DNA from: a virus | Lineage: Duplodnaviria > Heunggongvirae > Uroviricota > Caudoviricetes | Direction: 5' to 3' (one strand) | Length of the DNA stretch: 12,085 bases | Virus record (IMG/VR): IMGVR_UViG_2529293043_000033 | Shown here: piece after piece, positions 1,419-12,085 of the stretch | How the letters are laid out: every line of letters begins with the position of its first letter | Position numbering within the stretch: the first letter of the stretch is position 1 | Made by a program: the position numbers and the translations under genes | Notes under the pieces: model-generated | Database searches by the model: none | The model's input: the letters and a program-made list of their open reading frames with translations, nothing else | Told to the model about the DNA's origin: nothing

Positions 1419-1856
1419 TTAAAAATCAGCCTGACTCGGGATCAGTTTTTGCCAGATAACTGAAACGTATTTTGCCTGGTAACGGGCGTCATCAAGTGCA
1501 TTATGGCGCTCACCTTCGAATGGAATAGCCGTTCTGGCATCGAAGTCTATGGCTTTCCCCAGCTCAACGATTGTGCGTACATCGCGATCGTTGTAGTAAC
1601 GCCACGGGCAGGGGATCCCCTGCCGTTCGTATGAACGGCGCAAAATCGTGTTGTCGAAGTTGGCTCCATTTCCCCAGACCTGAACAAAAAATTCACCGGA
1701 GTTTTCGTCGATAAATTCCCGCAATTGTAACAGTGCATCATCTAACGGGATTTCATCGGTCATAATGGCAGATTGCGCTTCGCGTGATTGCTTAAGCCAC
1801 CATTTAATGGTGTCCCTCGCCGTGTGCTTTCGTGTTGTGTGCCTGCTTTTTACCAC
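1419..1856 (-). CDS. DEDDh (DnaQ/KapD-like) 3'-5' exonuclease, apparently N-terminally truncated remnant
   Basis: Exo II-like motif (WGNGANFDNT) and Exo III-like motif (HNALDDARY) are present, but no Exo I D-x-E motif in the roughly 60 residues before Exo II. The frame is closed by a stop at 1904-1902 just upstream of the GTG start at 1856-1854, so the missing N-terminus is not encoded here. Confidence 0.6.
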   Translation of the reverse strand: MVKSRHTTRKHTARDTIKWWLKQSREAQSAIMTDEIPLDDALLQLREFIDENSGEFFVQVWGNGANFDNTILRRSYERQGIPCPWRYYNDRDVRTIVELGKAIDFDARTAIPFEGERHNALDDARYQAKYVSVIWQKLIPSQADF

Positions 1857-2570: not shown

Positions 2571-2801
2571 TTAGTCAGAGTTTCTTGCTAACCAGCGACG
2601 CGCGCCAGATTCGGTTTTAAACGTTTTGCTTTTGGTATACGTCATCGCGGTGAACGTGCCGTCCTGGTTGGGAAACACGCCGCACACCAGAGATTCGTTG
2701 TTGCCAAGATCAAGAGTATCCATGCTGACCTCATATCCCCTTAACGCCGGGGTAGCGGAACAAAAACCTGCTGCATAGTTAAAGTTGAACCCTGCCGTCA
2801 T
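2571..2801 (-). CDS. Hypothetical small protein (76 aa), first gene of the leftward early operon
   Basis: ATG at 2801-2799 with GAGG about 9 nt upstream on the minus strand. Lies about 95 nt downstream of the predicted leftward promoter. No recognisable motif. Confidence 0.4.
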   Translation of the reverse strand: MTAGFNFNYAAGFCSATPALRGYEVSMDTLDLGNNESLVCGVFPNQDGTFTAMTYTKSKTFKTESGARRWLARNSD

Positions 2802-2901
2802 GTTCTTACGCCTCGGGCTGGCTACTTAATCCCTGACCACTGCCGGGTAACTCTAGGTATTGCCCTGTATTGTGTGGGACGGGATGGGTTGGTATGGGAA
2901 A

Positions 2902-2945
2902 ACTATAGGAAATGCCTAATTGCTTGTCAATAGGCTACGCCTAAT
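2902..2945 (-). promoter_or_regulatory. Leftward early promoter (PL-like) with two operator half-palindromes (OL-like)
   Basis: Minus-strand -35 TTGACA (2930-2925), 17-bp spacer, -10 TATAGT (2907-2902). Operator-like sites ATAGGAAATGCCTAAT (2905-2920) and ATAGGCTACGCCTAAT (2930-2945) overlap the -10 and -35 and match the motif found in the OR region. Confidence 0.5.
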
Positions 2946-3003
2946 GATTTGGGTGCGACCTAATAGGTGATGGTTTGTGGGAGAGGTAGTAGGAGTTAAC
3001 TAA

Positions 3004-3023
3004 CGGGAACTAGGAATTTCCCG
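3004..3023 (-). terminator. Possible weak terminator hairpin downstream of the repressor gene
   Basis: Inverted repeat CGGGAA-N8-TTCCCG just 3' of the repressor stop; the following U-tract on the minus strand is weak. Confidence 0.25.
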
Positions 3024-3038
3024 TCGGACCATATAAGT

Positions 3039-3515
3039 TTAAGTTCCTGTCTTGGTGATGTTCTGGCTTTTCCGTTTTGATTCTTGATTTTTCAGATAGT
3101 TAGCTACCTTCATTTCCATTGCGGCAATGTAGGCACGAACGTCATGATCAACCCAACTAGGCTCCGTAGCATTTCCAGATAAGAGGAAAGCCACAATTGC
3201 TCTTTTTTCATCAGAGGCGGCTTGATAAAGGCTGTTTATGTCTAAAAGTTCACTTTTTGTATCTGAAGTGGATGGGGTTGGTATGGGGTATTCGTTAAGC
3301 CCCCAATGCTCTGGACCAACCACATCAGAAAAGAAACGCCATAGTTCTGGAAGTTTGTCTTTACTTATCGAACCTTTCTTAATCCAGTCATGGATTGATG
3401 GTGGTTGGACTTTGAAATGACGTGCGATTTCCGCCTTTGATTTGACGGCTCCTGATGCAATTTTTTTGTTAATGGCCTGCTCTATCGCTCGGCCTAAGTC
3501 TTTACCACTAAGCAT
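3039..3515 (-). CDS. racR: Prophage repressor, RacR-like (CI functional analogue)
   Basis: 158-aa ORF divergent from a YdaS/Cro-like gene and flanked on both sides by repeated operator palindromes. N-terminal HTH-like segment (AEIARHFKVQPPSIHDWIKKG). Size and context match the RacR-YdaS-YdaT immunity module. Confidence 0.75.
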   Translation of the reverse strand: MLSGKDLGRAIEQAINKKIASGAVKSKAEIARHFKVQPPSIHDWIKKGSISKDKLPELWRFFSDVVGPEHWGLNEYPIPTPSTSDTKSELLDINSLYQAASDEKRAIVAFLLSGNATEPSWVDHDVRAYIAAMEMKVANYLKNQESKRKSQNITKTGT

Positions 3516-3542
3516 TGCTTAATAGTCTCCTATGCGCATCGC

Positions 3543-3612
3543 ATTAGGCAATGCCTACTCTCGAAGCGTTAGGCATAGCCTATTGACAATTGCATTAGGC
3601 TAAGCCTAATAT
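3543..3612 (+). promoter_or_regulatory. Tripartite OR-like operator with rightward PR-like promoter
   Basis: Three palindromic sites with centres 25-26 bp apart: ATTAGGCAATGCCTAC (3543-3558), TAGGCATAGCCTA (3570-3582), and the perfect 7-3-7 palindrome ATTAGGCTAAGCCTAAT (3594-3610). Promoter -35 TTGACA (3583-3588), 18-bp spacer, -10 TAATAT (3607-3612), overlapping the third site. Confidence 0.65.
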
Positions 3613-3639
3613 TATTGTGTGTTTTTTGGAGTTCATTCG

Positions 3640-3963
3640 ATGAAAAAAGATAACTATTCATTCAAACGAGCTTGTGCTGTTGTCGGTGGGCAATCAGCAA
3701 TGGCTAGGCTTTTAGGTGTATCTCCTCCAAGCGTAAATCAATGGATCAAAGGTGTACGTCAGTTGCCTGCTGAGAGATGTCCTGCGATTGAACGAGCAAC
3801 AAAAGGTGGTGTCCTGTGTGAAGAACTTCGTCCTGATGTTGATTGGACATACTTACGACGCTCGTCATGTTATTCGCAGAATATGTCGATGAAGCAACCA
3901 AATGACGAAAACGATCATACCCGAAGCATCAAGAGGCAAATGATTCATGAAAATCAAACATGA
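3640..3963 (+). CDS. ydaS: Cro-like HTH regulator, YdaS family
   Basis: ATG 3640 with GGAG 9 nt upstream, about 20 nt from the predicted PR start site. MKKDNYSFKRACAVVGGQSAMARLLGVSPPSVNQWIKGVRQLPAERCPAIERA closely matches what I recall of Rac YdaS. The track's 3619 GTG start is less likely. Confidence 0.8.
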   Translation: MKKDNYSFKRACAVVGGQSAMARLLGVSPPSVNQWIKGVRQLPAERCPAIERATKGGVLCEELRPDVDWTYLRRSSCYSQNMSMKQPNDENDHTRSIKRQMIHENQT

Positions 3964-4372
3964 GCACATCCGCATGGCGATGAATGCCTGGGCATATCCT
4001 GATGGTGAGAAAGTTCCTGCAGCTGAAATAGCCCGGACTTATTTCGAACTGGGGATGACGTTCCCGGAACTGTACGACGACAGCCATCCGGAAGCCCTGG
4101 CTCGTAATACCCAGAAAATTTTCCGTTGGCTGGATAAAGACACCCCTGATGCTGTTGAAAAAATGCAGGCTCTGTTACCGGCGATCGAAAAGGCAATGCC
4201 GCCTCTGCTGGTGGCCCGTATGCGCAGTCACAGCTCTGAATATTACCGTGAGATCGTCGAACGGAGGGATCGGCTGGTGAAAGATGTGGATGATTTTGTC
4301 GCAGCGGCGATCGCCTGGGGCACCCTGACTAACAGTGGGGGTCAGCCTGGTAATGCTGTTGTCGTGCATTGA
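3947..4372 (+). CDS. ydaT: YdaT-like protein (toxic when derepressed; CII-like functional analogue)
   Basis: 141 aa, overlaps the ydaS-like stop by 17 bp. N-terminus MKIKHEHI and its position immediately after ydaS match the Rac/CP-933P arrangement. Confidence 0.7.
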   Translation: MKIKHEHIRMAMNAWAYPDGEKVPAAEIARTYFELGMTFPELYDDSHPEALARNTQKIFRWLDKDTPDAVEKMQALLPAIEKAMPPLLVARMRSHSSEYYREIVERRDRLVKDVDDFVAAAIAWGTLTNSGGQPGNAVVVH

Positions 4373-9370: not shown

Positions 9371-9429
9371 TGCTGCGGGTGCTTGAGGCTGTCTGCCTCG
9401 GGCATGCCACCGTAAGGTAGACAGAGAAA

Positions 9430-9497
9430 AGCCCCAGTTAACATTACGCGTCCTGCAAGACGCCTAACATTAATCTGAGGCCAATTTCATGCTAGAC
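9430..9497 (-). ncRNA. Candidate Sok-like antisense RNA (approximate extent)
   Basis: Minus-strand promoter candidate -35 TTGCCT (9532-9527), 17-bp spacer, -10 TAACCT (9509-9504), placing an antisense transcript over the mok/hok leader and start region as in hok/sok loci. The 3' end was not resolved. Confidence 0.3.
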
Positions 9498-9545
9498 ACA
9501 TGTAGGTTAGCCTCTTACGCGCCGAAAGGCAAGGAGAAGCAGGCT

Positions 9546-9701
9546 ATGAAGCAGCAAAAGGCGATGTTAATCGCCCTGATCGTCATCTGTATCACCGTCA
9601 TAGTGACGGCACTGGTAACGAGGAAAGACCTCTGCGAGGTACGAATCCGAACCGGCCAGACGGAGGTCGCTGTCTTCACAGCTTACGAACCTGAGGAGTA
9701 A
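9546..9701 (+). CDS. hokD: Hok/Gef-family type I toxin (HokD/RelF-like)
   Basis: 51-aa product MKQQKAMLIALIVICITVIVTALVTRKDLCEVRIRTGQTEVAVFTAYEPEE, near-identical to HokD/RelF as I recall it. AGGAG 9 nt upstream of ATG 9546. An in-frame upstream ATG at 9489 gives a mok-like leader frame. Confidence 0.85.
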   Translation: MKQQKAMLIALIVICITVIVTALVTRKDLCEVRIRTGQTEVAVFTAYEPEE

Positions 9702-10871: not shown

Positions 10872-11762
10872 TCAGGCTGCCAGATCATCGTTTCCGATGG
10901 AAGCATAATAAGCTTTTTCTGCTTCTGCCGGAGGAGTATGGCCCAGCCTTCCCAGCAATCGTCGATTGTTATACCAGTCCACCCACGTTAGTGTGGCCAG
11001 TTCCACTTCTGCACGGTTTTTCCAGCTCTTACGGTGTATTACCTCCGCTTTGTAAAGACCATTGATGCTCTCAGCCATCGCGTTGTCATACGAGTCGCCT
11101 GTACTCCCTGTTGATGCCAGTAATCCGGCTTCTTTTAGTCGCTCCGTATAGGCCAGTGACACATACTGAGAGCCTTTATCGCTGTGATGGATGGTGCCAG
11201 ACGGACGACGGGCCCACAACGCCTGCTCCAGCGCATCCAGCACGAATGTCGTTTCCATAGACGATGAGACCCGCCACCCCACGATGTATCCGGCAAACAC
11301 ATCAATGATAAACGCCACATAGACGAAGCCCTGCCATGTGCTGACGTAAGTAAAATCAGCCACCCACAGCTGGTCAGGTCGTTCTGCCACGAACTGACGG
11401 TTTACGCGGTCGCCTGCGGCAACGGCTTTCCGGCTGATGGTCGTACGGACCTTTTTACCCCGGAGAACACCGGCAAGTCCCATAACCGCCATGAGACGTG
11501 CCACTGTACATCTGGCCACCCTGATTCCTTCCCGTAACAACTGACGCCAGACTTTACGCACACCGTACACCTGATGATTTTCATCGTATACGCGCTGTAT
11601 CTCTCTCTTCAGCCAGTCGTCGTGCTGCGCACGGGCACTGCGTTTATCCGGATGATGTCGCTGTTGCTGACAATGGTAATACGTTGACGGGGCAATATGC
11701 AGTTCGCTGCATACCGGTCCGACCCCGTACTGCTCACGCAGCTTATCCAGCAGTGGCATCAT
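10872..11762 (-). CDS. IS3-family transposase OrfB (DDE/integrase catalytic domain)
   Basis: 296 aa; DDE-type motifs (WVADFTYV ... [10 protein letters not shown]); overlaps the orfA stop (ATGA). Confidence 0.9.
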
Positions 11763-12085
11763 TTTTTCCAGAGGCGGTCGAACTCCGCCTTCGCAAAATA
11801 AGCGGAAGCCTGGCGAAGGATATCGTTACTGCGGCGCAGTTCACGATTTTCACGTTCCAGCTCTTTCAGACGCTGACGTTCAGCGCTGGTGAGCCCACCA
11901 TCACCGCCCCCGGTATCCCGCTCATGCTGGCGAACCCAGACACGCAGAGTCTCCGGCGTACAGCCAATCTTTGGGGCAATGGAACAAATTGCCGCCCACT
12001 GTGAGTCATATTCATCCTGACTTTCCAGAACCATACGAATCGCCCGCTGACGGACTTCGGGGGAAAAACGAGTATTTTTAGTCAT
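11759..12085 (-). CDS. IS3-family transposase OrfA (HTH and leucine zipper)
   Basis: 108 aa, [22 protein letters not shown] ... [31 protein letters not shown]. The ATG sits on the last 3 bases of the window. An A6 run at the orfA/orfB junction is the presumed -1 frameshift site. Confidence 0.9.

Follow-up and report, generated by a model that had tools for sequence, protein, structure and literature searches.

The locus examined here raises the question of what a family of closely similar 17-bp palindromes does on either side of a prophage immunity repressor gene. It lies in a 12,085-nt stretch of viral DNA (IMG/VR record IMGVR_UViG_2529293043_000033, Caudoviricetes), which at its full length is called the window below. 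The window is a lambdoid prophage of Escherichia coli O157:H7 integrated beside potC, and the 1.6 kb around the palindromes is 100% identical to many E. coli O157:H7 chromosomes, EDL933 included. We consider it very probable that the palindromes are operators of RacR, the repressor of Rac-type lambdoid prophages, the right-hand set silencing the rightward promoter PR and the left-hand pair shutting a leftward promoter PL. This reading draws on the sites, with the statistics and conservation described below, and on the identities of the genes, together with RacR binding, PR-first protection and the PR start as established for the orthologue of E. coli K-12; for the window prophage we infer that RacR binds the left pair, that PL is active and in which order the sites are occupied. 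The system is real, ordinary and largely known, its core under the name RacR.

When the whole window was searched with the pattern ATTAGGCNNNGCCTAAT (ATTAGGC-N3-GCCTAAT), allowing up to three mismatches, six matches were found against 0.36 expected, and none of 200 dinucleotide-preserving shuffles reached six. All six form two clusters that flank the gene of a 158-aa repressor, with start-to-start spacings of 25 bp in the left pair and of 25 and 26 bp in the right trio; every one of the five exact ATTAGGC heptamers in the 12 kb lies within the six sites. A preliminary description of the locus had listed five operator-like sites sharing one palindrome, three of them spaced by 25-26 bp. All five, and the spacing, were borne out, but a sixth site at 3507-3523, across the ATG of the repressor gene, had been missed. 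Furthermore, a weight matrix trained solely on 66 sites from 14 non-Escherichia loci gave the six window sites 17.6-25.9 bits, whereas the best other position in the window scored 6.0 bits. Under the same matrix the best score in random 12-kb sequences averaged 7.7 bits, and its 99th percentile was 17.4 bits.

Explanations without a DNA-binding protein were also weighed. That the palindromes are chance repeats, or RNA or DNA hairpins such as terminators, is barely credible: a terminator scan does flag 3594-3610, where a 7-bp stem is followed by T-rich sequence, but chance is excluded by the motif count against the shuffles and by the weight-matrix scores, and the sites lie in promoters, upstream of the starts. 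Since the half-site sequence is conserved whereas the N3 centre is free to vary, with no compensatory change, the palindromes fit protein-binding sites. An explanation by an RNA family could likewise be set aside, as a search of 2900-3620 against Rfam returned no match.

The protein in question is encoded between the two clusters (racR, 3039-3515, minus strand; RefSeq annotation). It matches the NCBIfam RacR equivalog model NF049929 with 246.8 bits (cut-off 200; E = 8.8e-74) and is 92% identical to K-12 RacR over 158/158 residues. On the basis of Pfam matches and RefSeq annotation the gene order also corresponds to that of a Rac-type switch: racR is divergent from a ydaS-like gene for a 107-aa Cro analogue (3640-3963, plus strand; Pfam YdaS_toxin, 3.8e-30, and P22_Cro, 1e-8), and a ydaT-like gene for a 141-aa CII analogue comes next on the plus strand (3947-4372; Pfam YdaT_toxin, 2.6e-10). 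Downstream of ydaT lie DnaT-like and lambda-P-like (O/P-like) replication genes. In E. coli K-12, which has few essential transcription factors, RacR is among them; it governs Rac excision as well as ydaS and ydaT, both of them toxic genes.

Much of the right-hand operator has been described in K-12. Three GCCTAA/TTAGGC repeats were reported in the 123-bp racR-ydaS intergenic region, for which electrophoretic mobility shift assays (EMSA) gave three RacR-DNA complexes (Krishnamurthi et al. 2017; PMC5700373). DNase I footprints of RacR defined the half-site 5'-ATTAGGC-3' and the inverted repeat (T/A)TAGGC-n3-GCCTA(T/A), with one operator on the ydaST promoter and another whose spacer covers the racR ATG (PMC9638921; 2022, Nucleic Acids Research, NAR). 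In the same work the lowest RacR concentration sufficed to protect the ydaST promoter, protection of the racR-proximal region required higher concentrations, and the primer-extension starts included a single ydaS start with -35 TTGACA and -10 TAATAT. A further study (PMC11014345; 2023, NAR) reported four inverted repeats, as well as a RacR octamer by size exclusion that was read by its authors as four dimers on the four intergenic repeats, and called the RacR regulon, ydaFG operon included, not characterised. The report of Bindal 2017 (PMC5700377) has no operator or left-arm content. The published operator is present in the racR-ydaS region of the window at the sites starting at 3594, 3568, 3543 and 3507, one of which lies over PydaST and one of which holds the ATG in its spacer. 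Thus, the claim that the locus gives a specific operator definition holds, but that definition had been published earlier for K-12 RacR, and the module had not been recognised as RacR/YdaS/YdaT. The right operator, and the EMSA or footprinting of 3540-3612 that had been proposed, are not new, since equivalent experiments exist for the K-12 orthologue, which is 92% identical. The right operator being already well characterised, little is added there; the right operator and the half-site are already published for K-12, and the left pair is, as far as could be determined, an unreported, modest extension.

A consensus promoter scan of 2700-3750 returned exactly two sigma-70-like sites, one per direction. 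The rightward one, PR (3583-3612, plus strand), has TTGACA, an 18-bp spacer and TAATAT (10/12 consensus), and its hexamers and spacing are those of K-12 PydaST, whose start site has been mapped and whose -10 has been mutated (PMC9638921; PMC11879457). The site predicted to be strongest, ATTAGGCTAAGCCTAAT at 3594-3610, is a perfect palindrome (no mismatch; 25.9 bits) that shares 4 bp with the PR -10, and GTTAGGCATAGCCTATT at 3568-3584 (two mismatches; 22.7 bits) is fused to the PR -35. The third site, ATTAGGCAATGCCTACT at 3543-3559 (one mismatch; 23.8 bits), lies in the racR promoter region and aligns with the AGGCAATxCCTA site of relatives. The right trio had been placed as a whole on a near-consensus PR; this is so for the sites at 3568 and 3594, whereas 3543-3559 is upstream of PR and makes no contact with it. 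The fourth site, ACTAAGCATTGCTTAAT at 3507-3523 (three mismatches; 18.9 bits), spans the racR start codon, its spacer CAT being the ATG on the other strand. It is the 'O3' described in PMC9638921, its K-12 copy is identical, and the same register is kept in nearly every relative, beta-proteobacteria included. It is likely a site of racR autorepression.

The ATG operator overlaps the first racR codons, of which M1, L2 and G4 are invariant across the family. It also holds the CTAAG-n5-CTTAA box that in K-12 is bound by the restriction-modification controller C.Csp231I, with lethal cross-talk (PMC9638921); since the site is identical to that of K-12, the target of this cross-talk exists in the O157:H7 prophage as well.

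Given its 92% identity to K-12 RacR, RacR of the window probably binds its sites and represses ydaST. In the mechanism that we propose, RacR dimers would bind the 17-bp ATTAGGC-N3-GCCTAAT sites, and occupancy of the two sites fused to the -35 and -10 of PR would block RNA polymerase, so that ydaS (Cro-like), ydaT (CII-like) and the genes for replication are silenced. Because the strongest sites sit on PR, ydaS and ydaT would be silenced first. The third right-hand site would act in the racR promoter region, and the weaker fourth one across the racR start codon would mediate autorepression at high RacR. The predicted order of affinity in the window prophage, taken from the site scores, is 3594 > 2929 > 3543 > 3568 > 3507 > 2904. 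It is highly unlikely that the palindromes are primarily operators of the Cro-like YdaS and not of RacR. Cro and repressor share operators in lambda-type switches, and YdaS has been reported in the Rac papers to compete with RacR in the intergenic region and to autorepress; however, RacR alone shifts and footprints this region in K-12, protection without YdaS having already been reported for the right cluster, and the motif tracks the invariant RacR N-domain across genera. Moreover, shared use of the sites by YdaS would belong to the same switch and would be no alternative to it.

The left pair lies on the second promoter of the scan. PL (2930-2902, minus strand) is a predicted leftward promoter with -35 TTGACA at 2930-2925, a 17-bp spacer and -10 TATAGT at 2907-2902 (11/12 consensus), from which transcription would start near 2895; its hexamers are identical in K-12, and relatives retain TTGAC and TAnnnT. 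The strong left operator OL2, AATAGGCTACGCCTAAT at 2929-2945, has one mismatch and 24.1 bits, and its final 2 bp also form the opening 2 bp of the PL -35; the resulting OL2/-35 fusion, GCCTATTGACA, is present in 15/15 loci compared. The weaker OL1, TATAGGAAATGCCTAAT at 2904-2920 (three mismatches; 17.6 bits), fills the PL spacer and shares 4 bp with the -10, and its register 25 bp from OL2 is kept in K-12 and in relatives from 10 further non-Escherichia loci. The two left-hand sites had been said to overlap the -35 and -10 of PL; both contacts are real but partial (2 bp of the -35 and 4 bp of the -10), and the overlap with the hexamers at PR is equally partial (2 bp and 4 bp). Together, the cassette O2-TTGACA-N6-O1-TAnnnT lies about 95 bp past the stop codon of racR, from which it is directed away. 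With this operator-promoter cassette, also present at PR, on the left, the same repressor would also shut a leftward early operon, which in the window would run through a DUF1391 (YdaF-like) gene, the first downstream of PL (2571-2723, minus strand; Pfam DUF1391, 6.6e-30; RefSeq annotation), towards xis and int.

A third left operator was considered and rejected. The palindrome ACCTAATAGGT (ACCTA-A-TAGGT) at 2958-2968, upstream of the left pair, has one TTAGG half-site at a distance of 19 bp from OL2. K-12 and E. ruysiae share the palindrome but other genera do not, and because it is kept only within the Escherichia lineage it was not counted as an operator.

The conservation of the left pair was followed in 23 genomic loci fetched by means of the RacR-homologue alignment and in three phage loci, all of which were scanned for sites. 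Two palindromes at exactly 25-bp spacing, fused to TTGAC and TAnnnT, were present in 14 of the 23 genome loci and in two of the three phage loci, from Enterobacterales to Burkholderiales. The genome loci belong to Escherichia (four), Mixta, Morganella, Proteus, Erwinia, a Pseudomonadota metagenome-assembled genome, Achromobacter (three), Burkholderia and Pigmentiphaga, and the phage loci to Escherichia phage vB_EcoS-683R6 and the complete Klebsiella phage KpF5. When compared, the left cassettes read ATTAGGC-N3-GCCTAT|TGACA-N6-ATTAGGC-N3-GCC|TAATAT or a close variant, with the -35 on one palindrome and the -10 on the other. They lie downstream of the repressor gene, 548 to 2534 bp from its start codon, in flanks that are otherwise unalignable. 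In KpF5 the repressor is followed by a DUF450 gene, and the cassette separates this gene from the first one of a same-strand early operon, a placement that mirrors lambda cI-rexAB-OL/PL. In K-12 Rac the same six palindromes are found at syntenic positions, the left pair downstream of racR included. This comparative evidence, drawn from aligned sequences, argues strongly for a functional left pair.

The right-hand PR of the relatives is the same cassette as the left one. Non-Escherichia loci (L007-L025, about 2425-2510) have three right-hand sites (the ATG site, the -35-fused and the -10-fused one), whereas the Escherichia lineage, the window (3507-3610) with it, has four, one being extra. The additional PR cassette of Escherichia (GCCTATTGACAATTGC...) is very similar to the PL cassette on the left, and the resemblance suggests that the Escherichia PR may have been rebuilt by duplication of, or recombination with, the left module.

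It can be predicted that RacR also binds the two-site cassette on the leftward promoter, at 2902-2945 of the window and about 1,419,628-1,419,669 of K-12. If true, this would account directly for published data in which a fall in RacR derepresses ydaG, ydaF, kilR, recET and xis/int. RNA-seq of K-12 with reduced RacR showed an increase of about 40-fold for ydaF and ydaG and of more than 70-fold for kilR, ydaC and ralA, and CRISPR interference (CRISPRi) against racR derepresses ydaG, kilR, ydaE, racC, recET, xisR and intR. As far as could be determined, the left operator/PL cassette and its wide conservation are unreported, yet expected for a lambdoid switch. In the open-access literature we found neither RacR sites nor a promoter downstream of racR, and nothing relevant on RacR from ChIP-exo, ChIP-seq (chromatin immunoprecipitation) or SELEX (systematic evolution of ligands by exponential enrichment), or from sbcA/recE promoter work.

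Alternatively, the left pair might serve chiefly as an auxiliary anchor through which the right operator cooperates over a long range, or be an evolutionary relic, and not be the operator of a working PL in this prophage. The left arm is indeed decayed: a 3'-5' exonuclease gene (1419-1856, minus strand) is annotated as an N-terminally truncated pseudogene, the equivalent of K-12 ydaG is missing, so that in the region 2571-2801 (minus strand) the DUF1391 gene comes first after PL, and neither kil nor recET genes are present before xis and int. In addition, OL1 is degenerate in the Escherichia lineage, with three mismatches, and the reported RacR octamer (PMC11014345) makes a looping role plausible. 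However, the -35 and -10 of PL are near consensus (11/12) and, in one genus after another, accompany the sites; loss of RacR in K-12 strongly derepresses leftward genes, and xis and int are still downstream of PL in the window. Looping and repression of PL can, moreover, coexist. We therefore regard a mere anchor or relic as improbable and retain the left pair as putative operators of PL.

Several points nevertheless weigh against RacR operators acting at PR and PL as proposed. OL1 and the ATG site, with 17.6 and 18.9 bits and three mismatches each, are near the random 99th percentile of 17.4 bits, so that the sites at 2904 and 3507 rest partly on their conserved register. The left pair was not seen within the DNA fetched at nine of the 23 genome loci, and no binding or transcription data on it were found in the open-access literature for any Rac-type element. 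The derepression of leftward genes in RNA-seq could be indirect. Since the left arm of the window prophage is heavily deleted, PL may now control little. On the racR side, no PRM-like promoter passes the consensus scan of 2700-3750, and the mapped K-12 racR -10 boxes are altered in the window at 3524-3567 (PracR3, GAGAAT to GAGACT; PracR2, AGTAAG to TTCGAG); the details of autoregulation may therefore differ. Given these altered boxes, the repressor expression level of the window prophage may also be set differently from that of K-12.

The locus had been described as a lambda-type immunity switch, and this is supported, in that the repressor gene diverges from a Cro-like gene and operators lie on PR and on a leftward promoter. 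Lambda has three operators each at OR and OL and a cI/Cro switch with PR, PL and PRM. Like lambda, the window has divergent repressor and cro genes, 17-bp palindromes about 25 bp apart on PR and PL and a CII-like activator; its weak repressor-proximal site suits autorepression, and a repressor octamer has been reported for K-12 RacR. The racR transcript of K-12, according to published work, is leaderless, as is that of lambda cI from PRM. Unlike lambda, the window has four right-hand and two left-hand sites, its left and right operators are only about 640 bp apart, its repressor lacks a Peptidase_S24 (S24) domain and has a C-domain of another fold, and YdaS has been reported not to repress racR.

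The left cassette, if true, would also give the reported octamer a lambda-like looping role. As a tentative alternative to four dimers lined up on the intergenic repeats, which we put forward by analogy and hold to be somewhat doubtful, the RacR octamer could form a bridge like that of lambda CI, in which the left pair and the PR pair each hold two dimers and racR is looped out. The predicted loop would measure about 640 bp both in the window and in K-12, in relatives as much as about 2.5 kb, and it would tighten the repression of PR and PL and set racR autoregulation. On looping by RacR, the open-access literature gave only the paper on prophage CP-933P discussed below.

The repressor itself shows why the lambda-type label needs qualifying. 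A Pfam search of the 158-aa protein gave no family at E<=0.01, and thus neither a Peptidase_S24 nor a helix-turn-helix (HTH) match. An AlphaFold2 (AF2) model of RacR has a five-helix N-domain (residues 4-71), a disordered linker and a short all-helical C-domain. The matches of the N-domain in the PDB by Foldseek are nearly all XRE proteins, the N-terminal domain of lambda cI (cI-NTD), Cro or C-proteins, although they are weak (best E 0.095, none <=0.001); in the literature, too, the N-domain fold is reported as similar to XRE/cI-like proteins and the C-domain as of a different fold. In the homologue alignment residues 1-73 are nearly invariant across genera whereas the C-terminal half diverges, and one shared operator specificity is therefore predicted. 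The N-domains of the window and K-12 proteins differ at three residues (A23S, I30V and H42Y), each of which is seen in relatives with the same operators.

In Achromobacter, Pigmentiphaga, Azoarcus, Herbaspirillum, a Pseudomonas phage and the homologues P0101 and P0102, this N-domain is fused to Peptidase_S24 (PF00717, E 2.1e-13 to 1.3e-24). The S24-type loci examined carry the same operator cassette, with the exception of the Pseudomonas phage, which has the ATG site only; the cassette thus travels with S24-type repressors in beta-proteobacteria. The window RacR is without the S24 autocleavage domain, unlike these distant homologues with the same N-domain and operators. Because its DNA-binding domain is found coupled to an S24 peptidase domain in distant relatives, RacR can be placed as an S24-less branch of the cI-type lineage, and RecA-stimulated self-cleavage is not expected for it. 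RacR would act like lambda cI at the DNA level. The DNA-binding domain and operators are kept while the S24 autocleavage domain, expected to govern induction, is swapped, which makes a tidy example. On the tentative reading of an octamer bridge, the invariant N-domain and the two-site promoter cassette at both ends would be ancestral to the Enterobacterales and Burkholderiales systems, whichever C-domain (S24 or RacR helical) is attached.

The exchange of C-terminal modules was followed among N-domain relatives at loci L013, L015, L016, L018, L020-L025 and L028 and in proteins P0101, P0102 and P0114. In the S24 fusions, found in beta-proteobacterial prophages, the Pseudomonas phage and some Pectobacterium proteins, the N-domain is about 50-86% identical over residues 1-77. 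Other RacR-type relatives have different short C-domains (Burkholderia L017, Nitrosomonas L014, and L019). Most such loci keep the operator palindromes; conservation thus concerns the DNA-binding module with its sites, and exchange the C-terminal one.

Compared with K-12 Rac, the window shares the 92%-identical repressor passing the RacR equivalog model, the gene order, the six syntenic palindromes, the PR hexamers and spacing, the identical ATG site and a YdaT-box at the ydaT start. It differs in being another prophage, located beside potC in O157:H7, and its operators are nearer to the consensus (OR1 is perfect, and OR3 has one mismatch against three in K-12). The racR -10 boxes are altered and ydaG is missing in the window, its YdaS has 107 aa as against a 297-nt gene in K-12, and its replication genes are DnaT-like/P instead of ydaUVW. 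A second point of comparison is the PaaR2-YdaS-YdaT switch of CP-933P in E. coli O157:H7 (PMC8630535). This is a lambdoid switch in the same strain with YdaS/YdaT analogues, four equally spaced right-hand palindromes and repeats in the PL promoter, but its repressor PaaR2 and operator (repeats of consensus GTTTAGTAA) are unrelated and a toxin-antitoxin pair lies downstream of the repressor.

At the start codon of ydaT, the window has a YdaT-box-like inverted repeat, ATGATTCATGAAAATCAA at 3940-3957, with one mismatch to TTGATT-N6-AATCAA. YdaT of Rac is a CII analogue with such a box at the ydaT start, the activation site of a reverse promoter (PMC11879457; 2025). On the minus strand at about 3000-3026, some 15 nt 3' of the racR stop, an 8-bp hairpin (ACGGGAAA...UUCCCGU) is predicted, of which K-12 keeps the stem with a different loop. 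Its folding is no better than that of shuffles (z -0.67 in the window and -1.43 in K-12), and it is a possible racR terminator insulating PL.

Two of the database records deserve a comment. A 5.2-kb contig (L005; JARKOR010000130.1) binned as 'Candidatus Nanosynbacter' carries a Rac immunity region that matches two K-12-like E. coli loci, with the same RacR protein and a single base difference in the sites; mis-binning or contamination is almost certainly the cause. The label of a scaffold assigned to Alistipes senegalensis (L019; JAMPER010000001.1), which encodes a RacR-like repressor, is also suspect. Finally, elsewhere in the window Rfam identified a sok antitoxin RNA (9377-9551, plus strand; 114 bits) adjoining a hokD-type toxin gene, and an ALIL frameshift pseudoknot (11688-11804, minus strand; 121 bits) that indicates an IS3-family insertion sequence at the right end.

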